Origin: Thermodesulfobacteriota bacterium
GTDB taxonomy: Bacteria; Desulfobacterota; Binatia; Bin18
DNA: 64,000 nucleotides
Assembly (NCBI GenBank): GCA_964291405.2
Contig: OZ219926.1
Coordinates: 1,536,001-1,600,000 of the forward strand
Reading direction: 5' to 3'
The notes beneath the pieces are model-generated. The model was not told the origin of the DNA and did not search any database. It worked only from the letters and a program-made list of their open reading frames with translations. The position numbers and the translations under genes were made by a program. Below, one piece after another: positions 3,947 to 62,335 of this stretch (position 1 is its first letter; every line of letters begins with the position of its first letter).

Positions 3947-4060
3947 GAGACTCCCCTCCCCTCCATGTTCGTTGACTTCGTTTATTGTATCAGAACATAA
4001 AAGAGGTTTTGGGCACCCCAGCGTTATATTTATTCGCCCCATTGACCTAGACGGAGAGGC

Positions 4061-5230
4061 ATGAAACCTCGGGCCATTATGCACCCGCACCCATCATTGC
4101 CCTTCTCCCGGTATCAGGATGCGACGGGCCCGGAACGGATTCTCTCCTTTTATGATCCGGCCAGTCAGATGCGAGCGGTGATTGTCATTGATACGACCGC
4201 TTTCGGCATGAGCGCGGGTGGCGTGCGGATGCTGCCCGACCTGTCGGTTGAAGAGATGATCCGCCTGGCTCGGGCTATGACGTATAAATATCTGATGCTC
4301 GAATTCCCGGCCGGGGGTGCAAAAGCCGGCATCTGGTACGACCCGGCTACCCAGGACCGCCAGGCAGTTCTGGACGCGTTTCTCCAGGTTCTTCAGCCCC
4401 TGTACGAAAAACGGACCTATTATCCTGGCGCGGACATGGGGACATCGGACGATGACTTTCTGCCGTTACGGAACGCGGCGGGGAAGCGGCGCTATAGTGG
4501 GTTGCGGACCAAACAGTTTGAGGGATTGCCACTTGAAGACCAATTGACAGGCTTTGGCGTGGTTGAGTCAGCCCTGGTGGCGGCCAAGGCCTTTCAACTG
4601 CCCGTACACGGCGCAACGGTTGCCATTGAGGGGTTCGGCAAGGTTGGGGGCGGGGCGGCCCGTTTCTTTATCCGTGCGGGAGCCCAGGCGGTGGCCGTCT
4701 CAACTCTGGCCGGCACCCGTTACGACCCGAAGGGTCTGGATGTCGAGAGGCTCTTGGAACTGCGCCAAGAGTATGGAGATGAGGTCGTCCGTCACTATCG
4801 AGGCGGGAGGCTGCTCTCTCGGCGCACACTCTTCACGCTGCCGGTTGATATCCTCATTCCCGGCGCCCGCCCGGATGTTATCCATGCCAAGAATGTTGAG
4901 CGGATTCAGGCCAAACTGGTTGTCCCGGCCGCGAACATTCCGTTTCGGCCGTCGATTGCGAACCGCCTGTCCCAGCGCGGGGTCGGCGTCGTGCCCGATT
5001 TTGTCTCAAACGGCGGCGGGGTCCTGGCCGCGCTGGCCGATATCAAGGGACTCGGGACCGAGAAATCCTTTACCTTTGTCAGTGAACATATTCGGAAGAA
5101 TACCAAACTGGTACTTTCGCGGAGCAAACGCTCGCGCTGTACGCCGTTTGAGGCGGCACTCAGGATTGTTCGAGAGCGCTGGAAAAAGACCGCGCAGACA
5201 CGTCAGCCGCTTGTTGCCGATGACGCGTAA
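4061..5230 (+). CDS. Glu/Leu/Phe/Val dehydrogenase family protein, probably not glutamate-specific
   Basis: [39 protein letters not shown]. Confidence 0.85.
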
Positions 5231-5287
5231 CGGCATGTTGCTTTTTCCTCAAGCGGGAGCCCAGAATCGTAGAACGGAGAGAAAAGT

Positions 5288-6160
5288 ATGGAGTTTCACA
5301 CACGCACAGTCACGGCAAACGGCATCCACTTTCACTGCCTCGAAGTTGGTCGCGGGCCGCTCGTCCTGTGTTTGCACGGCTTTCCGGATAATGCCTATAC
5401 CTATCGCACCCTCCTACCGGTCCTGGCCGAGGCGGGTTTTCATGCGGTCGCGCCGTTCATGCGCGGCTATGCCCCGACGTCTGCCCCAGCGGACGGACGC
5501 TATCAATCGGTCCTGCTCGCGCAAGACGCCGTCGCGTTGATTACGGCTTTAGGAGCTGAGCAGGCGAGTGTCGTTGGACATGACTGGGGCGCGTTTGCGA
5601 CCTTTGGAGCGGCCGCCCTCGCGCCGGAACAGATACAAAAAATTGTCGTCCTTGCAGTCGCGCATCCGGGGGCCATGCTGGGCGCATTAGCCTCGGACTA
5701 CGACATGATCAAAGGCGGCTGGCACGCCTACTTTTTTCAGATGCCGTTTGCCGAACAAGCGGTCTCAGCCCACGATCTCGCCTTTATCGAGCGCTGGTGG
5801 CAGGACGCCTCGCCCGAGTATGATATTCCGACAGAGATCATAGCCAGTGTGAAAGAGACTTTTCGGCAGCCGGGAGTGGTGACCGCCGCGCTCAATTACT
5901 ACCGGCATACGTTTCACCCTGATAATCGAGACCCGGCCTTACAGGCCCTCCAGGAAAAGATGGCCGCCCCCACCACGGTTCCGACGCTTGCCCTGCATGG
6001 GACACGAGACCGGCCAGGCCGTCTTACGGCGTTCAACGCCATGGACCATTTGTTCACCCAGGGCCTGGAAAAAGAAATCTATCCGGGGCTTGGACATTTC
6101 CTGCATCTGGAAAAGCCAGACGAAATCAACCCACGGGTTGTTGAATTCCTCACATCGTGA
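5288..6160 (+). CDS. Alpha/beta hydrolase, epoxide hydrolase-like
   Basis: LHGFPD, VGHDWGA (Asp nucleophile), ALNYYR, GHFLHLEKP. Confidence 0.9.
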   Translation: MEFHTRTVTANGIHFHCLEVGRGPLVLCLHGFPDNAYTYRTLLPVLAEAGFHAVAPFMRGYAPTSAPADGRYQSVLLAQDAVALITALGAEQASVVGHDWGAFATFGAAALAPEQIQKIVVLAVAHPGAMLGALASDYDMIKGGWHAYFFQMPFAEQAVSAHDLAFIERWWQDASPEYDIPTEIIASVKETFRQPGVVTAALNYYRHTFHPDNRDPALQALQEKMAAPTTVPTLALHGTRDRPGRLTAFNAMDHLFTQGLEKEIYPGLGHFLHLEKPDEINPRVVEFLTS

Positions 6161-6217
6161 ATGTGCGTGAGAAGAATCTTCTGGGCTTACCAGGAGAACC
6201 GCTGCTTACTCCACCCT

Positions 6218-7126
6218 CTACCGAAACGCCTCGATCACTTCCTGCAAGGCGACCATTTGGTTGCCGTTGGCTGACGAGGGCACCAGAATGGGCGTTTTGA
6301 GGCCGGTATCATACCAGGCTTCCACGCCGGCTCTGACCTCGGACACACTGCCGTACAGGGTGACCTGACTCAGCCAGCGGTCAGACATGAGAGACGGGAT
6401 TTTCTCGTCTTCCTTATTGGCCATGGCCTGCTGGATGGCCCGCATTTCCTCTTCATAGCCGGCTTCGATCCAATACTGCTGGTAGTTGGGTAAGCGGACA
6501 TAGGTGCTGAGTGTCCGTCGGTGGACTTTCGCGGCTGCCTCTTTATCGTCCGAGATAACAGTCGGAATCATATTGCCAACAAAAAAATCATCGTCCTGCA
6601 TTTTCTCCTGCGGCAGAAAGCCCAGCGACGTGACCATATGCGACCGGGCCGCATTGGCCCATACCGCGCCCTGAGAAATCTCGGCCGACAGTTTGACCAT
6701 GGCCTTGCGTAAGGTGGCCAGGACAATGGGCGGCAGCGCATCCTTTCGGCCAACGCTGCCGTGCAGATCGGAGACAAATTGACGCATATCGGCCAGTGGC
6801 TTGCCGGCCTTCACCTTCAGGCGGTTCAGCATCGGGCCGTGGCTCACGCCCACGCCAAACCGGAAGCGTCCGCCCGAGACCTCATGAATAAGGGCCGCAG
6901 TTTGGGCAAAATCATACGGATGGCGGGTATACATATTGGCAATGCTGGTCCCGAACGGAATCTCGTTGGTGGCAAAGGCCAGGGCCTCGCACAGGCCAAT
7001 ACAGTCGCCCACACTCTGACAGTAAATGCCGCTGAAGCCTTCCTGCTCGATTTGGGTTGCCACTTCCAGGGTTTGTTTTCTTCGTCCAGCAACGGCGACT
7101 AAGGCGATGGCCGGTTTCTGCGTCAT
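6218..7126 (-). CDS. LLM-class flavin/F420-dependent oxidoreductase
   Basis: FGTSIANMYTRHP, SGGRFRFGVGVSH. Confidence 0.88.
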   Translation of the reverse strand: MTQKPAIALVAVAGRRKQTLEVATQIEQEGFSGIYCQSVGDCIGLCEALAFATNEIPFGTSIANMYTRHPYDFAQTAALIHEVSGGRFRFGVGVSHGPMLNRLKVKAGKPLADMRQFVSDLHGSVGRKDALPPIVLATLRKAMVKLSAEISQGAVWANAARSHMVTSLGFLPQEKMQDDDFFVGNMIPTVISDDKEAAAKVHRRTLSTYVRLPNYQQYWIEAGYEEEMRAIQQAMANKEDEKIPSLMSDRWLSQVTLYGSVSEVRAGVEAWYDTGLKTPILVPSSANGNQMVALQEVIEAFR

Positions 7127-8066: not shown

Positions 8067-8888
8067 ATGAGTTATTGGCAGACTGAACAGAGTGACGGAG
8101 TCGTGATCGCAAAATACCATAACCCGCCGATGAATTATTTCTGTGCGGAAGGCACCCAGGAGTTGTGGAAACTGATCGAGGACTGGCGCGACCCCGCTAT
8201 CCGGGCCGTCGTGTTAACCGGCGCGATGGAAGGCAAGTTCATTACCCACTACAGCGTGGAAGAGTTGGTTGATCTGGCCAAGGACCGGGAAGCCATGCGG
8301 CTGGCTGGCACCTCGCTGACCACCGCCTATCATGCCATGCTGAAGAATTTGAGCGACCTGCCCAAGGCTATCATCGTTGCCATGAACGGGGACACCATGG
8401 GCGGGGGGTTTGAACTGAGCCTGTCGTGCGACCTGCGTATCGGTCAAAAAGGTGACTATCGCTACGGGTTTCCGGAAGTCAAACTCGGCATTCTGCCTGG
8501 CGGCAGCGGCACCCAGCGTCTGTCGCGGCTGATCGGGATCGGACGCGCGCTTGAGTTTGTGATTCGCTCTCGCGTGGTCCCGCCCGACGAAGCGCTCCAT
8601 TTCGGTCTGGTCCACGAAGTAGCCGACGACGCGCTCGCCCGCGCCACGGAAATCGCCCACGAGATTGCCAACTTCCCGCCGATTGCCGTCGCCCGCGCCA
8701 AGCACGCGGTCTATGCCGGCAACGATACTCACCTCGCCGCCGGGCTCGATATTGAAAGCTCGGCCTTTCTGGAAACTATGTTGTCCGAGGACGGCCTGCT
8801 GGCCATGCAGACCTATATCGATCTGCCGTACGAGAAACGGCGCGACTGGCTCGATAACCCAACCAACCCCGGCTATACAGGCAAGTAA
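8067..8888 (+). CDS. Enoyl-CoA hydratase/isomerase family protein
   Basis: GGGFELSLSCDLRI, PEVKLGILPGGSGTQRL. Confidence 0.92.
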   Translation: MSYWQTEQSDGVVIAKYHNPPMNYFCAEGTQELWKLIEDWRDPAIRAVVLTGAMEGKFITHYSVEELVDLAKDREAMRLAGTSLTTAYHAMLKNLSDLPKAIIVAMNGDTMGGGFELSLSCDLRIGQKGDYRYGFPEVKLGILPGGSGTQRLSRLIGIGRALEFVIRSRVVPPDEALHFGLVHEVADDALARATEIAHEIANFPPIAVARAKHAVYAGNDTHLAAGLDIESSAFLETMLSEDGLLAMQTYIDLPYEKRRDWLDNPTNPGYTGK

Positions 8889-52055: not shown

Positions 52056-53033
52056 CTACGCCTGACGGAATGCCGGCATCACTTCTTTGGCAAAGCGCCG
52101 GAAGGACGCCATATCGTAGTCGGGATACATCGACACAATGAAATACTGCACTCCAGCATCCGCATATGCCTGGACCGCTGCTCTGACAGCGTCAGGCGGC
52201 TGCTTGAGTTGCTCAAGGCTGAGCGATGTAGACTTCTGTATCTCGGCGGGGTCGCGGCCGACCTCTTTGCAGATGGCGTCAAATTTTACCGCGATCCTTC
52301 TGGCCGCTTCAGCTCCTCCTTTACGGACAAAGAAATGCCAGATGTCGGCATGTCGAGCGACCAGCGGCTGGACTACCTTGGGTCCCATTCCACCAATCAA
52401 AATCGGTGGATGGGGTTTCTGGAGCGGCTTAGGCTCAAATGGGGCATCTTTGACCTGATAGTATTTGCCCTCATACGTTGTCTTTTCCTGAGTGAATAGC
52501 ATCTTGATGAGTTCGACAGCTTCGACAAGCCGTCGTGCCCGCCCGCCCGGCGTGTAAAACGGGATGCCAAACGCGTCGTGTTCCAGTTTGAACCAGCCCG
52601 CGCCCATCCCCAGAATCAGGCGGCCGTCACTCACATGATCGACCGTTGCCGCCATTTTGGCGAGCAACGCCGGATTACGATACGTGTTGCCAGTGACGAG
52701 CAGGCCGGTTTTCAACCGCTTCGTCTGAGCGGCAAGGGCCGCGAGCAAGGTCCAGCCTTCTAAACACGGGCCGGCTGGATCGGAAAAGATCGGCAGAAAG
52801 TGATCAAAACCAAAAGCGCTATCATAACCGAGTTCATCAGCCTCCAGCCATATGTCCTGCACTTGGCTGTAGGGCACATGCTGCGGCGGGGTTTGCACTC
52901 CGAACCGGAGCCGACCAGTCGATTCCGCCGAAGCCTGTTGGGGCTGAGAAAGATTGCCGGCTAATGCGGCTGCGGTCACCACTGCGCCGGTATTCTTGAG
53001 AAAGGTCCGACGGGATATCTGCTCTTTCGCCAT
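52056..53033 (-). CDS. LLM-class F420-dependent oxidoreductase with twin-arginine signal peptide
   Basis: ISRRTFLK + hydrophobic stretch + ASA; FDHFLP, LEGWTLL, GNTYRNPALLAKMAATVD, GAGWF. Confidence 0.9.
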   Translation of the reverse strand: MAKEQISRRTFLKNTGAVVTAAALAGNLSQPQQASAESTGRLRFGVQTPPQHVPYSQVQDIWLEADELGYDSAFGFDHFLPIFSDPAGPCLEGWTLLAALAAQTKRLKTGLLVTGNTYRNPALLAKMAATVDHVSDGRLILGMGAGWFKLEHDAFGIPFYTPGGRARRLVEAVELIKMLFTQEKTTYEGKYYQVKDAPFEPKPLQKPHPPILIGGMGPKVVQPLVARHADIWHFFVRKGGAEAARRIAVKFDAICKEVGRDPAEIQKSTSLSLEQLKQPPDAVRAAVQAYADAGVQYFIVSMYPDYDMASFRRFAKEVMPAFRQA

Positions 53034-53076
53034 ACGGTATCCTCCACTTGGTATCATGGCCGCGTTGAACCGTCGG

Positions 53077-53964
53077 TCACGCCTTGGCCATCACGTCGTT
53101 GGCAAAGGCTTCCATCTGCGGATATAGGTCGGTCTGAAATTTTCGACGCGGTACCCAGCCTGGGGCAAACACGAACAGGCGGTGCACCCCGGCGTCTTCA
53201 AACTGTTTCACCGTATCCAATGTCGGCTGGACACCAGGCTCAAGCCCAACGGTAATCTCAAATTGGGAGAAATCCCGACCGGCCTGTTGGGTCAATTCCT
53301 TGAGTTGGCTCACATACGGTTGGACACTCTCGGGGGTATAGCGGATGCCGCACCAGCCGTCCGCCAACTCAGCCGCGCGCTTGAGGGCGGTCCGACTCTC
53401 CCCGCCAAAAACGAGCGGCGGGTAAGGGCTCTGAACCGGCTTGGGGTTAAACCCCACCGGCTTGAAATCGTGAAATTTCCCGGAAAACTGCGGGGTCTCT
53501 TCAGTCCACAAGGTCCGCATGACGCGCACTGCTTCTCGCGTCCGTGCGGCCCGGTCACGAAACGGCATGCCCACCGCCGCAAACTCTTCTTCACACCAGC
53601 CCACGCCAACCCCAAAGATCACCCGGCCCTGCGACAGGACATCCAGGCTGGCCACCGCCTTGGCCACCGCCAGTGTATTCCGCAGGGGAAGCACAAAGAC
53701 GCCGGTTCCGAGCTTAATCGTGGTGGTATGGGCCGCCACAAAGGACAGCGCCACAAATGGGTCATGCAAATTGACGCCCGGCCCGCCGGGAAATTTGCCG
53801 TCCGCAGAACCCGGATAGCGCGCCTGCATCTCAACCGGCACGGCCAAATGTTCGGGAATCCAGACCGATTCATAGCCGAGGGTTTCCGCTTGTTGGGCCA
53901 CTTGGGTCAAGGGCTCGGGCCGCACGGTTGACCCGCTCCCAACGCCGACTAACGCGAATTTCAT
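53077..53964 (-). CDS. LLM-class F420-dependent oxidoreductase (Rv2161c-like)
   Basis: GYESVWIPEH, DPFVALSF, GVGVGWCEEEF, GGES..ALKRAA. Confidence 0.9.
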   Translation of the reverse strand: MKFALVGVGSGSTVRPEPLTQVAQQAETLGYESVWIPEHLAVPVEMQARYPGSADGKFPGGPGVNLHDPFVALSFVAAHTTTIKLGTGVFVLPLRNTLAVAKAVASLDVLSQGRVIFGVGVGWCEEEFAAVGMPFRDRAARTREAVRVMRTLWTEETPQFSGKFHDFKPVGFNPKPVQSPYPPLVFGGESRTALKRAAELADGWCGIRYTPESVQPYVSQLKELTQQAGRDFSQFEITVGLEPGVQPTLDTVKQFEDAGVHRLFVFAPGWVPRRKFQTDLYPQMEAFANDVMAKA

Positions 53965-54648: not shown

Positions 54649-55842
54649 CTAAGACTGCTCAGCCATACATAATTTTTCAATCACGGATAGAATCCGGCCC
54701 GGCCCGTTTTCGAAGGTCTCCCGCCGGATGCTCTCATTGGGCTGATGGGCCTGGTCAAGATCGCCGGGCCCGCAGATCAGAGACGCGATACCGCCTGAGG
54801 CAAACTGACAACCGTCGGTCGCAAACGGCGCCCCGCCGCTGGTCTGTTGGCCGGCCACCTCAAATAATGCGCCTTCGAGGGGGGTTTCCCGAGGTGAAAA
54901 CAACGGCGGCACCACGAGCGGCTTCGAGAATTCGACACTGGCCTGATGGGAGGAGCCACTGAAATCGATCAGGTCAAGGGCTCGGATCCGACGGGTAATC
55001 TCGTGCAGGCAGTCGAGCGGATCGGCCTTGGGCAGGGGCCGGTAGCTGACTTGAATCGTACACTGCTCGGCAATCATATTACCCGCGGTCCCACCGCGAA
55101 CCAATCCGAAGTTCAGCGTCGGATAGGGTGATTCCGGGAACAGCTCGGCAAATTCGGCAGACGGGGCGGCGCGTAATTCGGCCTGATATTGGCCAATTAT
55201 GTTTATGACCTTTGCGGCAACCGCAATCGCGTTCACGCCCGTCTCAGGCGTACTGCTGTGGCCGCCCATGCCGCGGACGCTAATCGAGAAAACCGCCACC
55301 CCCTTATGGGTATGAAAGACTTTGTACGAGGTCGGCTCACCGATCCAGGCCAGGCGAGGCCGAGGGATATCGCCCAACAGGTCAGACAACTCGGGCACGA
55401 GGCGTTCCGCGCCCAGACAGCCCACTTCCTCATCCGCGGTAAACAGAAAGACGACCGGTCGTGTGAGCCGCTTGAGGTCGAGAGCTGCCGCGGCGTCCAC
55501 ACACTGCGCCAAAAAGATTTTCATATCCGAGGTGCCGCGTCCGTAGACGCGATCATCCTCCACGCCAAGGGTCAGCGGATCGCGTGTCCAACCGGGCTGA
55601 TCGAGAAACGGGACCGTATCCACATGGCCGGAGAGGATCAGGCCGTCCGGCTCGGGCGGGCCGGCAAACGCAATCAGATTGGCTTTGGGCACCCCGGCGA
55701 CCTCTGCGCGCTGCAGGGCAACGTCGAAGCCATGCTCCTCCAAATGATTGCCAAGATAGGCCATGGCTTCTACATTACTCTTTTGACTCACGGTGTCATA
55801 ACCAACCAAACGGCCGGCAATTTCTTGCAGATAGTCACCCAT
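54649..55842 (-). CDS. argE: Acetylornithine deacetylase (ArgE-like M20)
   Basis: LSGHVDTVP, YGRGTSDMK, DEEVGCLG, IGEPT, AHQPNE. Confidence 0.82.
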   Translation of the reverse strand: MGDYLQEIAGRLVGYDTVSQKSNVEAMAYLGNHLEEHGFDVALQRAEVAGVPKANLIAFAGPPEPDGLILSGHVDTVPFLDQPGWTRDPLTLGVEDDRVYGRGTSDMKIFLAQCVDAAAALDLKRLTRPVVFLFTADEEVGCLGAERLVPELSDLLGDIPRPRLAWIGEPTSYKVFHTHKGVAVFSISVRGMGGHSSTPETGVNAIAVAAKVINIIGQYQAELRAAPSAEFAELFPESPYPTLNFGLVRGGTAGNMIAEQCTIQVSYRPLPKADPLDCLHEITRRIRALDLIDFSGSSHQASVEFSKPLVVPPLFSPRETPLEGALFEVAGQQTSGGAPFATDGCQFASGGIASLICGPGDLDQAHQPNESIRRETFENGPGRILSVIEKLCMAEQS

Positions 55843-55944
55843 AGCGTTCTGGCCCCTTCCAGTTTAATGCAGGTAACATCATACTAGAAAAATCGGGACG
55901 ACCCGTACAGTCCTGTGAATTGAGCAATAGCGATCGGAAACGCC

Positions 55945-56676
55945 ATGATCAAACTCAGCGTCAACGTCAATAAAATCGCTACTCTGCGCAACGCCCGGGG
56001 CGGCGACCAGCCGAATGTCGTCCGGGCCGCCCAAACCTGCATCGATGCCGGTTGTCACGGCATCACCGTGCATCCACGCCCGGACGGTCGCCATATTCGC
56101 TATCAGGACGTGAGAGATCTGGCCGCCCTGCTCGCAGACCACAGCGGTATTGAATTCAATATCGAGGGCTATCCTTCGACTGAGTTTCTGGACCTGGTCT
56201 GCCAAGTGCGACCGATCCAGTGCACCCTGGTGCCCGACCCGCCGGACGTACTGACCTCAAACGCCGGCTGGGACCTCAGCAGCGATGTTGCCGGGCTCGG
56301 TCAGGTCTTGCAGCGTTTACACGACAACAGCATACGGACCAGTCTTTTTCTCGATCCGGATAACGACCAAGTCAGACGCGCAAAAGAGGTCGGCACGGAC
56401 CGGATTGAACTCTATACGGAACGCTACGCCCGTCTCTTTGGCAGCGCCGAGCAAGACCAAGTCTATGCCGCGTATCACACCGCGGCCCAAACGGCGCAAG
56501 AAGCCGGCCTGGGTCTGAATGCGGGGCACGATCTTAATCTGGAGAACCTGCCTTACTTTGCAGAGCATTTACCCGGTCTGCTCGAAGTGTCCATCGGCCA
56601 CGCCCTGATTTGCGACGCGCTCTACATGGGGCTGGTAGCAAGCGTGAAAGCCTACCTGAACGCGCTTGGGGATTAA
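55945..56676 (+). CDS. pdxJ: Pyridoxine 5'-phosphate synthase
   Basis: LSVNVNKIATLRNARG, GITVHPRPD, NIEG, IELYT, NAGHDL, EVSIGHA. Confidence 0.96.
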   Translation: MIKLSVNVNKIATLRNARGGDQPNVVRAAQTCIDAGCHGITVHPRPDGRHIRYQDVRDLAALLADHSGIEFNIEGYPSTEFLDLVCQVRPIQCTLVPDPPDVLTSNAGWDLSSDVAGLGQVLQRLHDNSIRTSLFLDPDNDQVRRAKEVGTDRIELYTERYARLFGSAEQDQVYAAYHTAAQTAQEAGLGLNAGHDLNLENLPYFAEHLPGLLEVSIGHALICDALYMGLVASVKAYLNALGD

Positions 56677-56718
56677 GGCGGAGTCCTAAGTTGCCTTTCC
56701 TCCCAACACCCAACAAGA

Positions 56719-56758
56719 TTGACGCGCCATGAGGACGGTAATAGATTGTCCTCATGGC
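56719..56758 (+). promoter_or_regulatory. Sigma70-type leaderless promoter with overlapping palindromic operator for the vapBC-like operon
   Basis: TTGACG-17 nt-TAGATT, ATG 6 nt downstream without SD; perfect inverted repeat GCCATGAGGAC-N11-GTCCTCATGGC straddling the -10 box and start codon. Confidence 0.7.
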
Positions 56759-57038
56759 TGCACAGACCATCAAATCGACGTATTCGCTGGATGTCGAATC
56801 CGTAAACACATTAGAGGCGTTGGCACAACGCTGGAAGGTGTCGAAGTCCGAAGTGCTACGGCGTGCTATTCGGAGAGTCGCGATGGAGTGGGAGCCGGAG
56901 AGTAGTACGGCGCTCAGCGCTCTCGACCAATTGCAGGCTTCTCTACGTAAGCGTAAGGTCAATGTCACACAGTGGGCACGGACTCTCAATGCTGAGCGCC
57001 AAGCGGCTGCTCCGCGGCTATCTTCCAAGTCTCAATGA
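56754..57038 (+). CDS. Ribbon-helix-helix (CopG-like) antitoxin
   Basis: STYSLD...LEALAQRWKVSKSEVLRRAI RHH pattern; ATGA overlap with the PIN gene. Confidence 0.85.
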   Translation: MAAQTIKSTYSLDVESVNTLEALAQRWKVSKSEVLRRAIRRVAMEWEPESSTALSALDQLQASLRKRKVNVTQWARTLNAERQAAAPRLSSKSQ

Positions 57039-57406
57039 TCCACTTGGACACGAGCTTTCTGATCCAAGCTCTGAAACCGGGATCCCCTGAAGATCGCAAA
57101 CTGCGAATCTGGATTGAAGAGGGCGAAACCCTGGTAATGAGTACAGTCGCCTGGTCAGAGTTCCTGTGCGGCCCACTTGACCTCTCCGAGATGGAATTGG
57201 CCACTGAAATCGTCGGACAGCGCCGAGACTTCACGCCGGAGCACGCTACGATTGCCGCCCATTTATTTAATGAGTCGGGCAGGCGGCGGGGCTCATTGAT
57301 TGACTGCATGATTGCCGCAACGGCGCTCGTCGATGGTGCACCCATTGCGACTGCGAATGTAGCGGACTTTCGCCGATTTGAGGATTCCGGCCTGACGATG
57401 GCATAA
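57035..57406 (+). CDS. vapC: PIN-domain VapC-type toxin
   Basis: HLDTSFLI, WSEF, IDCMIAATA, TANVADF: conserved PIN acidic residues present. Confidence 0.9.
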   Translation: MIHLDTSFLIQALKPGSPEDRKLRIWIEEGETLVMSTVAWSEFLCGPLDLSEMELATEIVGQRRDFTPEHATIAAHLFNESGRRRGSLIDCMIAATALVDGAPIATANVADFRRFEDSGLTMA

Positions 57407-57419
57407 GGGAAAATCTACG

Positions 57420-57461
57420 ATACCAGCCACTCTAAGCATTGACGACGACCTGCTCATCTGA
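57420..57461 (+). pseudogene. Decayed N-terminus of a second VapB-type RHH antitoxin
   Basis: Reads I-P-A-T-L-S-I-D-D-D-L-L-I-stop after AAGGGA; resembles the MRTTLxIDDDLL VapB start. Confidence 0.45.
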
Positions 57462-57519
57462 GGCTGACCAAGAGCCGAGTAAATGGCTTTCCTAAGAGTC
57501 CAATTCTTTACCGCTGGAT

Positions 57520-59256
57520 ATGAGTCAAGAAACAAGTAGGCCCCAAATCCCGGCCGATGACTTCGCCCGACGCTTTTCGTTACGGGCTAGGAATCTCATG
57601 TGGTTTCTTGGTGCCGGCGCATCGGCCTCTGCCGGCCTCCCGACTGCTATGGACATGATTTGGGAATTCAAACAAATTCTATTCGCCAGCCAGAATCGCA
57701 GTTGGAGCCAAACATCCGTAGACCTTTTCCAGCCAGGTGTACGCCATCGTATTGACGCTCATATCGAATCCCTGGGAAGTATGCCGTCACCCGGCGCACC
57801 GGATGAATACGCCGCGCTGTTTGAAGCGGCGTATCCGGCAGAGTCGGACCGTCGTGCATTCCTAGATGGGAAACTGACAGGCGCTAAGCCATCATACGGC
57901 CACATAGCACTCGCGACGCTGATGCGCCACGAGCAAACGCGCATAGTGTGGACCACGAACTTCGACGCTCTGGTCGCAGATGCCTGCGCCAAGGTATACG
58001 ACACGACAAGCACACTGACTACTATAGATCTTGACTCGACGGACCAAGTTCAGCAGTCACTAGCCGACGAACGCTGGCCCATAGAAGTCAAGCTCCACGG
58101 CGACTTCCGTTCTCGTCGCCTGAAAAATACAGACGATGAACTGCGTCAGCAAGATGCCCATTTGAGGAGTGCACTGGTCGAATCATGTAAGCGTTTTGGT
58201 CTTGTCGTATGCGGATACAGCGGACGTGACGATTCCATCATGGACGCACTTGAGGAGGCGATGGAGCACGAGGGAGCCTTCCCTGTCGGGTTTTTCTGGT
58301 TACACCGAGGGGAAGACTCACCACTACCGCGCGTCGTGCGACTGTTGGAGCGTGGTATCGCTAACAACATTGAAGCAGCATTGGTGCCTATCGAGAACTT
58401 CGACGAGACCCTGCGTGACTTAGTTCGCCTCACTAAAGATATCGACGAGACCGCGCTCAACCAGTTCGCGTCGCAACGCCGGCCTTGGAGCCCAGTGCCC
58501 CTTCAGAGGACTGTTCGCCGCGGTTGGCCCGTCGTACGGTTCAACGCCTTGCCTGTCATCAATGCACCGACTCAGTGCCGCCGGCTAGTTTGCGATATCG
58601 GTGGCACAGCCGAAGTACGTGAAGCCATACAGAAATCCAGCGCGGACGTTCTTGCTGTTCGTTCTCAAGTTGGCGTATTGGCCTTTGGGGCAGACTCTGA
58701 CTTGCGAAATGTTTTCGACTCCTATGGCGTCACTGAATTCGACCTTCACGCATTCGACGTTAAGCGTCAAAGATATGAATCTACGGAACGCGGACTCTTA
58801 GGCGAAGCCCTCAATCGCGCGATTAGTCGACACGGTGGTCTGAACATCATAGGTCACCGACGCTTCGTGCCCGCAGACCCGAAAGATGCAATCTGGAGCC
58901 ACTTGCGGGACTTGGTTGGGATACTGACAGGCGTCGTCAACGGTAACCCCGATCTCCAGTGGTGGGAAGGCATCACCGCTCGATTGGATTGGGCCAATGA
59001 CCGCCTTTGGCTACTCATCGAACCCTGTACGGTATTTGAAGGCATTACCGACGCCAACAAGGGAGCGGCGACCGATTTTGCCCGTGAGCGGACTATCGGA
59101 CGATATAATCATGTGCTCAACGATCTGATCGACTTCTGGGCACGTCACTTATCTCAAGATGAACAGGAGATATGTGCATTAAACACAGGATATGGTGTCG
59201 ACGCTGTTTTTCAAATCTCACCGGTTACCTGTTTCTCCACTAGGATAGTGTCGTGA
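57520..59256 (+). CDS. SIR2-APAZ effector of a short prokaryotic Argonaute system (NADase)
   Basis: WFLGAGASASAG, WTTNFD, KLHGDF, GYSGRDDS SIR2 motifs plus a ~300-aa C-terminal region in the APAZ position; coupled to the pAgo gene. Confidence 0.92.
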   Translation: MSQETSRPQIPADDFARRFSLRARNLMWFLGAGASASAGLPTAMDMIWEFKQILFASQNRSWSQTSVDLFQPGVRHRIDAHIESLGSMPSPGAPDEYAALFEAAYPAESDRRAFLDGKLTGAKPSYGHIALATLMRHEQTRIVWTTNFDALVADACAKVYDTTSTLTTIDLDSTDQVQQSLADERWPIEVKLHGDFRSRRLKNTDDELRQQDAHLRSALVESCKRFGLVVCGYSGRDDSIMDALEEAMEHEGAFPVGFFWLHRGEDSPLPRVVRLLERGIANNIEAALVPIENFDETLRDLVRLTKDIDETALNQFASQRRPWSPVPLQRTVRRGWPVVRFNALPVINAPTQCRRLVCDIGGTAEVREAIQKSSADVLAVRSQVGVLAFGADSDLRNVFDSYGVTEFDLHAFDVKRQRYESTERGLLGEALNRAISRHGGLNIIGHRRFVPADPKDAIWSHLRDLVGILTGVVNGNPDLQWWEGITARLDWANDRLWLLIEPCTVFEGITDANKGAATDFARERTIGRYNHVLNDLIDFWARHLSQDEQEICALNTGYGVDAVFQISPVTCFSTRIVS

Positions 59257-60671
59257 CCTCCCAGATCTCCTCTCATATATGGCTCCCAGAGCCCATGTTG
59301 GCTTTTCATCCCAACCGCTCCTCGGACCGAGAGCGACATCCGCTACGCGGGTTACTGGAATACGGGCCATATTCAGCAGGATTCGTTCCCGACCCCATCC
59401 GTGTAGCCACCCTTGCACCACACGGCGAGAGTCAGCGCCTCTATGACTTCATGAGAAACCTGAACTCGGCTTTCAATCCAAGAGAGCGCAGGGATTATCT
59501 CCCTCGATGGCCGGGTTTCCAACGTGTCTTCGGTTTGCATATGAGCGCCGCCGGTAAAGGTTGCCACGAGGAGGTCGACCATCAGCTTGATACAAACTTA
59601 CAAAAATCTCCTCAGCCGCACGTTACGATTGCGGAATACTTAGTGAGAGCCATTCAGCGTCTTGAAGCGCGTCGAAGCGACTTTGACGTTCTATTTGTCT
59701 ACATTCCCATACGGTGGGAGTCTGGTTTTGTTGGCGGACCCAACGACGACTTCGACCTGCATGATCATTTGAAGGCATATACGGCTGCTCGGGGAGTGCC
59801 TATCCAATTAGTGCGAGAAGACAGTGCTATCGCCTATCACTGCAAAGCCAGCGTCATGTGGCGCATCGGATTAGCGCTGTATGCCAAAGCAGGTGGAGTC
59901 CCGTGGAAACTAGCCGAGGCTGATCCAGAAACGGCCTATATCGGCATCTCCTATGCCGTACGTCCCGCCGACTCGGACAGACCACGCTTCGTAACGTGTT
60001 GTAGCCAAGTGTTCGATGCAGATGGGGCAGGCCTCGAATTCGTGGCTTACGACACTCAAGAAATCGAAATGCAGCGCGATAACCCCTTCCTCTCCCGAAC
60101 CGAGATGTTCCGTGTGATGACACGATCAATGGATCTGTATCGTCGTCGTCATGCCGGTCGGTCGCCACGTCGCGTGATGGTTCACAAGACCACGGAATTC
60201 AAACCTGATGAAGTTGACGGTTGTATGGAAGCCCTGCACCTATGCGAAGCCGTTGACCTTGTCCAAGTTGTCGAAAATGTCGGCTGGCGAGGCGTCCGCA
60301 TAGACCAGAACCCGAACGACAGGAAGGGGAGACCGGCCAATTTCCCGGTTCCGCGTGGAACCGTTGTTGGGCTTGGACCCCGGGAGGCTTTGCTGTGGAC
60401 TCATGGTGACGTGAAGGGTGTCGCGCGACGTTCCTTCTTTCAAGGCAGCCGCAGTACGCCTCGCCCCATTCGCCTCGTCCGCCATGCTGGCCACGGCACC
60501 TGGGATGATACAGCCCGCGCCATACTCGGGCTTTCCAAGATGAACTGGAATAACGACTCGCTCTATGACCCTCTGCCGGTCACCCTGGCTTACGCGAAGG
60601 TATTGGCGAGAGTTGTCAAACGCATACCGAACCTAGGAGCTACGCCGTACCAATTCCGATTCTTCATGTAG
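59253..60671 (+). CDS. Short prokaryotic Argonaute (MID-PIWI, catalytically inactive)
   Basis: EPMLAF, HPLRGL..YGPYS, DLHDHLKA, LYAKAGGVPWKL, AYIGISYA, VHKT, LSKMNWN, PVTLAYA, PYQFRFFM; GTGA overlap with the SIR2 gene. Confidence 0.93.
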   Translation: MTSQISSHIWLPEPMLAFHPNRSSDRERHPLRGLLEYGPYSAGFVPDPIRVATLAPHGESQRLYDFMRNLNSAFNPRERRDYLPRWPGFQRVFGLHMSAAGKGCHEEVDHQLDTNLQKSPQPHVTIAEYLVRAIQRLEARRSDFDVLFVYIPIRWESGFVGGPNDDFDLHDHLKAYTAARGVPIQLVREDSAIAYHCKASVMWRIGLALYAKAGGVPWKLAEADPETAYIGISYAVRPADSDRPRFVTCCSQVFDADGAGLEFVAYDTQEIEMQRDNPFLSRTEMFRVMTRSMDLYRRRHAGRSPRRVMVHKTTEFKPDEVDGCMEALHLCEAVDLVQVVENVGWRGVRIDQNPNDRKGRPANFPVPRGTVVGLGPREALLWTHGDVKGVARRSFFQGSRSTPRPIRLVRHAGHGTWDDTARAILGLSKMNWNNDSLYDPLPVTLAYAKVLARVVKRIPNLGATPYQFRFFM

Positions 60672-60813
60672 GTCGAAAGTAATTGGGATCATGAAACTCC
60701 ACCTTTGAGCTTAGCCTTGACTTCCGACTCCAGGTGATTGAAGCATGGATTGATCGACTGCAACGTGCGACATCATAGGCAATGATGGACACACCTATAA
60801 AGGAGGACTCGAC

Positions 60814-61821
60814 ATGCCAGAGCATAAGACTTTTTCGTTAGGGGATTTTTCGCTCGAATGTGGCCTCATTCTGCGCAAGGCACAGCTCGCCTATCAGGTC
60901 TATGGCGAACTCAACAGCCGCAAAGATAACGCCATCCTGCTGTGCTCGTGGTATTCCGGCGATCATACCGGCTATGAGTTTTTGATCCGGGAAGGCAAGT
61001 GTTTCGACCCAACCAAATATTGTGTGATCGGCGTCAATATGTTCACCAACGGGCTGTCTTCCTCTCCCAGCACGACACCCATTCCCATGAATGGCCCGCA
61101 TTTTCCGGCAACGACTATCCGCGACAATGTACGGGCACAGCACGCGCTTGTTCAGAGCCTTGGCATTGAGTCACTCGCCCTGGTCTCCGGCTACTCGATG
61201 GGCGCGCAGCAGTGCTTTCAGTGGGCGGTCAGTCATCCGGATATGGTCGAGCGGATTGCACCGTGGTGCGGTGCGGCGCGGACCACTCCGCATACCCATG
61301 TCTTTATCGAAGGCTTTACTTCCGCGCTCCGTGCGGACGCGGCCTGGAACCACGGCCATTACGCCCAACCGCCAGCCACGGGTGTGCGCGCCATGGCCCG
61401 GGTGTATGCCGGCTGGGGTCTGTCGCAGGCCTGGTATCGCGAAGAGCTGTACAAGCAGCTCGGCCATCCGAGCGTCGAAGATTTCCTGGTCTATTTTTGG
61501 GAGAACTTTTTTCTCCAGTGTGACGCGAATAATCTGCTGGCCCAGGCAAAGACGTGGCAGGATCATAATGTCGGTGACTCGCCGGGATTTGACGGAGACT
61601 GGCGAAAGGCGCTGGCCACAGTTTCTGCCAAGGCCATGATTATGCCGGGTCATACCGATCTCTACTTTCCACCGGAAGACAGCCAAGCGGAGACAGACTG
61701 CATGCCGAACGCCGTGTATCGACCGATCCCGTCGATTTGGGGACATTTGGCGGGAATTGGTATGAATCCGGAGGATAACGATTTTATTGACGCGGCGGTT
61801 CAGGAGTGTTTGGCGTCGTAG
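60814..61821 (+). CDS. Alpha/beta hydrolase of the homoserine O-acetyltransferase-like family
   Basis: LAYQVYGELN, NGLSSSPS, GYSMGAQQ, TDLYFPP, SIWGH; lacks the canonical MetX HALTG. Confidence 0.85.
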   Translation: MPEHKTFSLGDFSLECGLILRKAQLAYQVYGELNSRKDNAILLCSWYSGDHTGYEFLIREGKCFDPTKYCVIGVNMFTNGLSSSPSTTPIPMNGPHFPATTIRDNVRAQHALVQSLGIESLALVSGYSMGAQQCFQWAVSHPDMVERIAPWCGAARTTPHTHVFIEGFTSALRADAAWNHGHYAQPPATGVRAMARVYAGWGLSQAWYREELYKQLGHPSVEDFLVYFWENFFLQCDANNLLAQAKTWQDHNVGDSPGFDGDWRKALATVSAKAMIMPGHTDLYFPPEDSQAETDCMPNAVYRPIPSIWGHLAGIGMNPEDNDFIDAAVQECLAS

Positions 61822-61847
61822 GACGGGCCTTATCGTCCGCTGTCAAG

Positions 61848-61880
61848 GAAAAGCCAGCCGACGTGGTTGGCTGGCTTTTC
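61848..61880. terminator. Bidirectional terminator between convergent genes
   Basis: GAAAAGCCAGCCGAC-GTG-GTTGGCTGGCTTTTC. Confidence 0.8.
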
Positions 61881-61885
61881 GAGGA

Positions 61886-62335
61886 CTATCCCCCCACCCC
61901 GGCCTTCTGGGCTAAAGACGCATAACTTACCCCGTCTCCATTGTCGGTATTCACCGGCAGGCCAGCTTCCTGCCAACCGGCGACGGCTTGGCCCTGCTGG
62001 TCTTGTCCTCCGCCAAAGCCGCCCATCATATTCGAGACCTGCGTATACCCGGCCTGTTGCATGATCTCGGCGGCGCGTTGCGAACGACCGCCGGCCTGAC
62101 AGCCGACCACGACAGTGGACTCTTTGGGTATGGTCGCTTCGACAACGGCTAAGAAGTGTGGGTTCGGAACCGGACGGCCAGCGGATTGATCAAAAAAGAC
62201 TACGGGAATGTTGATGGCGCGCTCGGGGTGGCCGGCCTGGAATTCCGCCTCGGTGCGGACATCCAGATAGACGACGGCGGCGTCCTGGCTCAGTGTCTGG
62301 TGAGCCTCTGGTGGGGTTATTTGCACAATAGGCAT
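61886..62335 (-). CDS. Rhodanese-like domain protein
   Basis: YLDVRTEAEFQAGHP, VVGCQAGGRS, GWQEAGLP; SD AGGGAGG. Confidence 0.9.
   Translation of the reverse strand: MPIVQITPPEAHQTLSQDAAVVYLDVRTEAEFQAGHPERAINIPVVFFDQSAGRPVPNPHFLAVVEATIPKESTVVVGCQAGGRSQRAAEIMQQAGYTQVSNMMGGFGGGQDQQGQAVAGWQEAGLPVNTDNGDGVSYASLAQKAGVGG

Follow-up and report, generated by a model that had tools for sequence, protein, structure and literature searches.

The 64,000-nucleotide stretch analyzed here, called the window, covers positions 1,536,001 to 1,600,000 of contig OZ219926.1 in the Thermodesulfobacteriota bacterium assembly GCA_964291405.2. It contains four co-oriented open reading frames (ORFs) on the plus strand, of 94, 123, 578, and 472 amino acids. 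In order, they encode a ribbon-helix-helix (RHH) antitoxin, VapB; a PIN-domain toxin, VapC; a SIR2-APAZ protein; and a short prokaryotic Argonaute (pAgo), the last two together making up a SPARSA (short pAgo with SIR2-APAZ) operon.

56754..57038, plus strand: vapB, ribbon-helix-helix antitoxin, 94 amino acids (Pfam RHH_1, 24.7 bits against a cutoff of 20.5)
57035..57406, plus strand: vapC, PIN-domain toxin, 123 amino acids (Pfam PIN PF01850, 53 bits against a cutoff of 23.6)
57520..59256, plus strand: SIR2-APAZ NADase subunit, 578 amino acids (PADLOC PDLC02419 Aga_SIR2-PNTD1-PNTD2, E value of 1.7e-179)
59253..60671, plus strand: short pAgo, MID-PIWI only, 472 amino acids, GTG start (PADLOC pAgo_I, E value of 1.8e-198)

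Within each pair the genes are joined by a 4-nt overlap, ATGA at 57035 to 57038 between vapB and vapC and GTGA at 59253 to 59256 between sir2 and ago, and the gap between vapC and sir2, positions 57407 to 57519, is 113 nt long. An earlier reading of this DNA, the first-pass annotation, had described the same layout. It had named four co-oriented genes at these positions, with which the ORF list and the Pfam and PADLOC matches agree. It had coupled each pair by a 4-nt overlap and reported a gap of about 113 bp with no terminator or convincing promoter, and a scan likewise found no such site there. From this layout it had gone on to propose a single four-gene defense system, and that proposal did not survive comparison with other loci. 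Rather, we think it probable that an independent VapBC module and a SPARSA operon of short pAgo clade S1B stand side by side in a hypervariable toxin-antitoxin (TA) and defense hotspot, and that they are not a conserved four-gene machine. SPARSA would then owe its place directly behind vapBC to the arrival of both in one gene-swapping hotspot.

The comparison began from SPARSA loci elsewhere. With each prokaryote species represented by one genome, a scan gave 160 matching stretches, 97 of them encoding SIR2-APAZ relatives, and the best 80 of those 97, 34 to 68% identical and from many phyla, formed the comparison set. The pAgo gene directly follows the SIR2-APAZ gene in 79 of the 80 loci; the remaining locus ends at a contig end. 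By tblastn, none of the 80 contained, within 4 kb and at an E value of ≤0.01, a match to the RHH or PIN protein of the window or to the products of the two genes flanking the interval (pdxJ and a hydrolase gene). For the upstream side, ORFs of at least 55 amino acids were collected from the 900 nt 5' of sir2. ORFs more than half covered by one at least 1.8 times longer were removed, and five loci with less than 400 nt upstream were excluded. In the 296 ORFs that remained, from 75 loci, neither PF01850 nor RHH_1 was detected by Pfam. The check set by the first-pass annotation, recurrence of the same RHH-PIN clade at unrelated SPARSA loci, thus came back empty from both the 80 loci and the 296 upstream ORFs. 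A PIN profile was also built from 27 of the 29 PF01850 matches in the genome of the window, omitting one with a stop codon and one partial match, and was run on 8,508 stop-to-stop frames of at least 45 amino acids from the 80 loci. It detected three PIN proteins, two of them upstream (at 2.1 and 2.5 kb) and one downstream (at 0.5 kb); none of the three was adjacent. As a control, the profile recovered PIN proteins in 13 hotspot sequences and missed one that Pfam had detected (in G007). Among viral contigs there were six pattern matches, none of which was a relative of SIR2-APAZ.

The upstream neighbors of SPARSA in these loci include HsdR (L022, L023, L026, L028, and L031), HsdS (L048), methylases, and transposases. 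Further neighbors are AAA_21 with DUF4276 (L003 and L051), RES (L002), HEPN (L027), Fic (L032), TacA with GNAT (L076), DUF433 (L048), and UvrD (L049, L052, and L053). In seven near-identical loci (L009 to L014 and L025), a 353-amino-acid PIN_12 protein is encoded about 850 nt upstream of sir2. SPARSA recurs behind HsdR, as it does not behind vapBC: a co-oriented type I HsdR gene ends 40 to 170 nt ahead of it in three Dehalococcoidia and two Poribacteria metagenome-assembled genomes (MAGs). At least 15 of the 75 loci have SPARSA within about 170 nt behind unrelated, co-oriented, Pfam-matched genes (HsdR, methylase, Fic, and symporter), which makes tight packing a general habit of the cassette. 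Two peculiarities of the set may be recorded here. Nine loci (L008 to L015 and L025) are labeled as coming from various alphaproteobacterial genera and one Fimbriimonadaceae MAG, and their tblastn scores for SIR2-APAZ and pAgo are the same or almost so. A mobile element that spread recently could account for this, as could contamination between bins. In L026, from a Poribacteria MAG, the match to SIR2-APAZ is longer than usual (positions 4001 to 6718, about 2.7 kb against 1.7 kb), as if some 1 kb had been inserted into the gene.

Relatives of the toxin were then sought without regard to SPARSA. A metagenome scan with VapC matched 398 stretches containing 195 relatives, of which the best 80, at 56 to 79% identity, were used; 62 of these loci had at least 600 nt of downstream sequence and 74 had at least 300 nt upstream. 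None of the 80 showed a SIR2-APAZ or pAgo match at an E value of ≤1e-3 within up to 5 kb. An RHH homolog adjoins the VapC relative in 51 of them, and this pairing, together with the lack of SPARSA throughout, indicates that this vapBC clade travels independently. In a sample of the phylum, none of 400 other genomes contained this VapC at an E value of ≤1e-8, but the sample included just one other member of the genus, so the result mainly shows that the VapC clade is sparse.

Within the genus, the four genes occupy an interval between two core genes.

55945..56676, plus strand: pdxJ, pyridoxine 5'-phosphate synthase, left core flank (NCBIfam NF003626, E value of 7e-104)
60814..61821, plus strand: MetX-like alpha/beta hydrolase, right core flank (NCBIfam NF005757, E value of 3.3e-140)

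Both flanking genes are present in all 28 genomes of the genus. The contents of the interval were assessed in 26 of the 27 other genomes, and in all 26 the MetX-like gene is present beside pdxJ. The interval is a hypervariable integration hotspot. The whole four-gene block occurs in G017 only, at 91 to 92% nucleotide identity (93% at the amino acid level for SIR2-APAZ). Seven other genomes have an orthologous vapBC, and G017 is the only one of the seven with SPARSA behind it; the other six (G004, G002, G043, G021, G005, and G011) have a complete vapBC without SPARSA. Three more (G018, G010, and G015) retain vapB with only the first 26 to 30 codons of vapC, G022 and G013 hold vapB remnants, and in G041, G006, G016, and G012 the site is empty, with 30 to 70 nt between the core genes. 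Other TA cassettes at the hotspot are VapB (PF09957) with PIN136, RHH86 with PIN145, and MNT with HepT. Other cargo comprises a PD-(D/E)XK protein of 398 to 404 amino acids, a sulfatase-like protein of 712 to 747 amino acids, a HIRAN protein, type III Mod and Res (PADLOC E values of 1.6e-205 and 0), and, in more distant species, a GST gene. All Pfam-supported genes of the interval are co-oriented with the flanks (L099 to L124, 26 genomes), and the PD-(D/E)XK, sulfatase-like, and type III Mod genes begin 33 to 74 nt behind TA genes, these gaps being minima since ORF starts were taken as the longest possible. TA genes and cargo have also been shuffled: the PD-(D/E)XK gene follows vapC in G004 and PIN145 in G015, and the sulfatase-like gene follows vapC in G011 and a PIN remnant in G018.

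Repeats of the pdxJ 3' end accompany several of these cassettes. The last 62 to 66 nt of pdxJ (56605 to 56670 in the window) are repeated right after the VapB (PF09957)-PIN136 cassette in G001, G002, G005, G011, and G042, and a degenerate copy of the pdxJ 3' end stands behind the vapBC cassette in G021, G005, and G002 (loci with repeats: L101, L103, L109, L110, L115, and L116). The pattern looks like serial insertion of small, integrase-less cassettes into the 3' end of pdxJ. More distant SPARSA operons are also found in three other members of the genus, at other places in the genome and with different neighbors: a 482-amino-acid protein, or HsdS with zeta-like and HI0074-like genes (assigned from ORF translations alone). 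The distant SPARSA of G018 (L127) has MNT, HI0074-like, and zeta-like genes upstream and, about 1 kb downstream at 8240 to 8874, a Phd-like gene with a 126-amino-acid VapC-like ORF, again judged from translations.

Alignment with the other hotspot sequences located both edges of the SPARSA insert.

57407..57459, plus strand: vapBC cassette tail, common to genomes with vapBC but without SPARSA (homology with G021 and G005)
60691..60799, plus strand: remnant intergenic tail of an MNT-HepT TA cassette, at the right edge of the insert (homology to other genomes)

On the left, homology to the vapBC-only genomes ends 2 to 5 nt past the vapC stop codon in G004, G043, and G002, at 57429 in G011, at 57453 in G005, and at 57458 in G021; a metagenome contig of run X5 likewise diverges past 57453. 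Beyond this edge, G000 and G017 have SPARSA-specific sequence where G021, G005, and G002 have the degenerate pdxJ copy. On the right, homology resumes at about 60691, some 20 nt past the ago stop codon, in G010, G023, G011, G018, G001, and G019. The sequence at this point elsewhere follows the HepT gene, and empty-site genomes match only from about 60800. The interval is therefore a mosaic of a vapBC cassette (56677 to 57459), the SPARSA insert (57460 to 60690), and a TA cassette tail (60691 to 60799). GC content at third codon positions is 0.56 to 0.62 in both cassettes versus 0.66 to 0.68 in the flanking genes. Repeats flanking the SPARSA insert were of chance size only. An integron cassette array was considered and rejected: single-stranded DNA folds of three junction regions, one of them on both strands, were no better than those of shuffled sequences (z of +0.3 to +1.4).

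These distributions bear directly on the proposal that VapC is a part of SPARSA, either as the source of its 5'-phosphorylated guides or as an additional abortive effector that is triggered along with it. Tight co-oriented spacing with one visible promoter, retention of the block in G017, and intact PIN active-site residues all speak for it. Yet co-occurrence is limited to two sister genomes (none of the 80 SPARSA loci, none of the 80 VapC-relative loci, and one of the seven vapBC-bearing genomes, the other six having no SPARSA), so conserved association is lacking from either side, and the role of guide maker or component that the first-pass annotation had offered for VapC is not upheld. Characterized VapC toxins are narrow in their targets, cleaving either the sarcin-ricin loop of 23S rRNA or a very small number of specific tRNAs, and such an enzyme would yield tRNA halves, not a diverse set of 21-nt guides. 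In Koopal et al. (2022; PMC9097488), the neighborhoods of short pAgos were analyzed to a distance of five genes in either direction, and the APAZ protein is given as the only specific pAgo partner. According to the Zaremba et al. preprint (bioRxiv 10.1101/2021.12.14.472599), GsSir2/Ago protects Escherichia coli without any TA module and copurifies there with small RNAs of about 21 nt that begin 5'-AU. The same preprint (Supplementary Note 1) reports restriction enzymes, mobile elements, and TA systems as enriched near GsAgo and CcAgo, as defense island context. The first-pass annotation had known of no PIN-TA described as a SPARSA component, and our search agrees, having found no publication that joins a short prokaryotic Argonaute with VapC. 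Together, SPARSA function in E. coli without TA genes and a single conserved partner weigh further against a true four-gene system, which we regard as highly improbable.

Taken separately, each pair appears intact. The four acidic residues of the VapC PIN domain are kept in nearly all of the 80 relatives (D5 in 79 of 79, E42 in 80 of 80, D90 in 78 of 80, and D111 in 77 of 80). The window proteins scored below the cutoffs of the NCBIfam equivalogs for VapC (NF047959, 32.2 bits against 80) and VapB (NF050181, 18.5 bits against 60); these are narrow equivalogs, and the pair is classed as VapBC by Pfam domain and architecture only. A search of the PDB with VapC gave no match at an E value of ≤0.01. 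From their sequences, the two genes are best read as an intact-looking type II TA pair.

The SPARSA genes match their families over full length. Residues 19 to 575 of SIR2-APAZ align with positions 1 to 556 of the 558 in the PADLOC profile, and residues 2 to 472 of the short pAgo are covered by pAgo_I. The PDB search output labels the solved chains merely "Sir2 superfamily protein" and "Piwi domain protein"; the entries (8in8, 8jkz, 8jl0, 8k87, 8k88, 8y7z, 8y80, and 8y82) we take to be GsSir2/Ago of Geobacter sulfurreducens. SIR2-APAZ residues 13 to 544 align with chain 8jkz_A (8jkz/8in8, E value of 1.1e-66), with the motifs GAGxSxSAGxPT, TTNFD, HGDF, and GYSGRD retained. Residues 3 to 472 of the pAgo align with 8in8_C (E value of 8.1e-117), and the C-terminal RFFM is kept. 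From its close homology to the solved short pAgo, the protein is predicted to have lost the PIWI catalytic tetrad and so to be an inactive slicer. D237 of SIR2-APAZ aligns with D230 of the solved Sir2 chain, and D230A is a variant named in the Zaremba et al. preprint (bioRxiv 10.1101/2021.12.14.472599). By these matches the pair is classified as an ordinary, intact-looking SPARSA operon.

How the SPARSA genes would be transcribed is a separate matter, and it turns on three features.

56719..56747, plus strand: promoter-like site of vapB, TTGACG-17-TAGATT (sigma-70-like scan)
56728..56758, no strand assigned: perfect 10-bp inverted repeat, CCATGAGGAC-N11-GTCCTCATGG, spanning the -10 element and the start codon, candidate VapB operator
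57460..57519, plus strand: private 60-nt leader of the SPARSA insert, without a sigma-70-like promoter, terminator, or clear Shine-Dalgarno sequence

Positions 55800 to 61900 were scanned for sigma-70-like promoters and terminators with an E. coli-type consensus and a crude threshold. The site at 56719 to 56747 is the only plus-strand sigma-70-like site in that range, which bears out the earlier remark that the clearest promoter precedes the antitoxin. As a class, promoter-like sites were not above chance (5 found versus 3.1 ± 1.5 expected). The vapB -35 element, TTGACG, is kept in all 12 aligned vapB-bearing genomes, and the -10 element is TA[G/C]NTT. The latter ends 6 nt ahead of the vapB ATG, which suggests a leaderless vapB mRNA. 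The inverted repeat is intact solely in G000 and G004 and degenerate in the other 10 aligned genomes; on this weak evidence it may be the VapB operator, and no second operator half-site was found in the vapC-sir2 gap. The scan found no terminator-like site in the gap, whose RNA folds no better than shuffled sequences (z of +1.68, that is, rather less structured). Against the 80 other SPARSA loci, the 100 nt around the sir2 start gave only short matches of the kind expected by chance, and the idea of a promoter carried by the SPARSA cassette was dropped on account of this nonconserved leader. With only 60 nt of private upstream sequence, no recognizable promoter in it, and no terminator, some read-through from the conserved vapB promoter into SPARSA is plausible. 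The sole RNA run found (X1, metatranscriptome contigs) holds pieces of a relative, 90 to 97% identical, on vapB, sir2, and ago. None of these contigs bridges 57079 to 57555, and the vapB contig turns unlike the window after 57084.

It is possible, though we hold it only tentatively, that read-through has become regulation. SPARSA in G000 and G017 would then be mainly the distal part of the vapBC transcript, following VapB autorepression and rising upon VapB degradation, and hotspot TA cassettes would generally supply a promoter and retention to promoter-less cargo. Consistent with this, only 60 private nt precede sir2, neither the gap nor vapC holds a promoter-like site, no terminator intervenes, and the SPARSA leader is not conserved at other loci. 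The PD-(D/E)XK, sulfatase-like, and type III Mod genes are similarly placed, co-oriented and 33 to 74 nt behind TA genes, and in the cargo-bearing loci L100, L106, and L110, no coding-strand site recurs except the vapB promoter. However, the scan consensus is of E. coli type, so there may be an unrecognized promoter in 57407 to 57519, and the intergenic distances are minima. Moreover, the SPARSA loci elsewhere that stand equally tight behind unrelated co-oriented genes (at least 15 of 75) lessen the force of the spacing. A stronger form of this idea, which we rate as improbable, would make the TA cassettes of the hotspot portable heads that give an autoregulated leaderless promoter and addiction to promoter-less, swappable defense cargo. 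SPARSA would be held low by VapB-VapC and induced upon loss of the labile antitoxin, for example, when infection shuts off host expression.

Conversely, the SPARSA insert may have, or may use, a weak nonconsensus promoter in the gap and be insulated from vapBC. Such fully independent transcription has some appeal, since defense genes are often expressed at low levels from weak promoters and a TTGACG hexamer lies at 57439 to 57444, within the shared vapBC cassette tail. The scan and a direct reading of the sequence found no acceptable -10 element 16 to 18 nt from that hexamer, however, and no terminator stands behind vapC; we hold this account, too, only tentatively.

Several points weigh against two unconnected neighbors in a hotspot. 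The layout is unusually tight, with a 113-nt gap of which 60 nt are private, no promoter-like or terminator-like site, and no structure in the gap, and the entire four-gene block has been retained in a second species, G017, at the 91 to 92% identity given above. Other cargo genes at the hotspot begin as little as 33 to 58 nt behind a co-oriented TA toxin gene, and the TA genes could serve that cargo, for example, in its expression or retention. G017 aside, the SPARSA homologs with known context are all at most 68% identical, and there may be a narrow SPARSA clade that is always accompanied by vapBC. Finally, losses to the ORF filter and the PIN missed by the profile in G007 mean that the sensitivity of the searches was imperfect.

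On the reading that we prefer, of two independent modules sharing a hotspot, VapB would neutralize the PIN RNase and repress its own, probably leaderless, promoter, and the vapBC pair would act as an addiction or stabilizing element. SPARSA would have entered as a tight 3.2-kb insert (about 57460 to 60690) at the right edge of a resident vapBC cassette. By analogy with its family, the SPARSA heterodimer would load small RNA guides from the transcriptome and, once loaded, recognize complementary invader DNA, switching on NAD+ hydrolysis, whereupon the infected or plasmid-bearing cell would stop growing. Any read-through from the vapB promoter would be a by-product of hotspot packing and not a role for VapC in the SPARSA mechanism.

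The same genome contains a second defense island (L209, contig C3:1167500-1176500), about 420 kb upstream of the window region. It encodes HsdM, HsdS, and a 579-amino-acid SIR2-like protein (PADLOC PDC-S65, E value of 2.9e-215), followed by a 129-amino-acid ThsB-like TIR protein, a 167-amino-acid 8xMP membrane protein, and then a Phd/YefM-PIN pair. With 29 PF01850 matches in the genome and a Phd-PIN pair in this second island, TA genes beside defense genes are the rule here. Elsewhere in the window, at 52056 to 53964, two adjacent minus-strand ORFs of 333 and 295 amino acids look, from their translations only, like luciferase-like (F420/FMN-dependent) oxidoreductases.

Known families thus gain two members from this locus, an uncharacterized SPARSA S1B operon and a VapBC pair. 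A useful negative comes with them, in that models of SPARSA should not include VapC as an effector subunit or as one that makes guides. The hotspot itself may be of wider use, as it offers a clean natural series across 26 related genomes (empty, TA only, and TA with differing cargo). That series could serve for studying the exchange of small integrase-less cassettes at a core gene 3' end, and for learning whether neighboring defense genes are driven by TA promoters.

Compared with known systems, the window vapBC pair is like type II VapBC modules in having the antitoxin gene first, a 4-nt overlap, and a promoter directly before the antitoxin. It also resembles them in its RHH_1 and PIN domains above the Pfam cutoffs, its four acidic PIN residues, and its membership in a genome with many copies (the 29 PF01850 matches). 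It is unlike them in scoring under the NCBIfam equivalog cutoffs, in having no solved relative at an E value of ≤0.01, and in a vapB promoter palindrome that is not kept among orthologs. The SPARSA pair shares with the solved Sir2/Piwi heterodimer its gene order and overlap, full-length profile and PDB matches, the SIR2 motifs with the D230-equivalent residue, and the pAgo C terminus, and its proteins are of similar length (578 and 472 amino acids versus 584 to 587 and 473 for the solved chains). It is distant from that heterodimer in sequence (E values of 1e-66 and 8e-117) and differs from it in its setting, a 3.2-kb insert that follows a vapBC cassette and is without a recognizable promoter.

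TA cassettes are abundant in sedentary chromosomal integrons, and the pdxJ site resembles integron arrays in its co-oriented, tightly packed, apparently promoter-less cassettes, TA genes among them, behind one promoter-bearing element. Unlike integron arrays, the site has no attC-like hairpins at its junctions and no integrase in or beside it, and its repeats are copies of a gene 3' end. The cassettes also differ from those of the usual defense hotspots in being very small (0.7 to 3.2 kb), co-oriented with the flanks, and without an integrase, several being bounded by copies of the pdxJ 3' end. In other respects the site is like defense islands and integration hotspots: a variable segment between two core genes, empty in some species and elsewhere a mosaic of restriction-modification, TA, nuclease, and Argonaute systems. 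TA genes near SPARSA at this site likewise agree with the remark, in the Zaremba et al. preprint (bioRxiv 10.1101/2021.12.14.472599), that TA modules are enriched around Sir2/Ago genes as defense island context.

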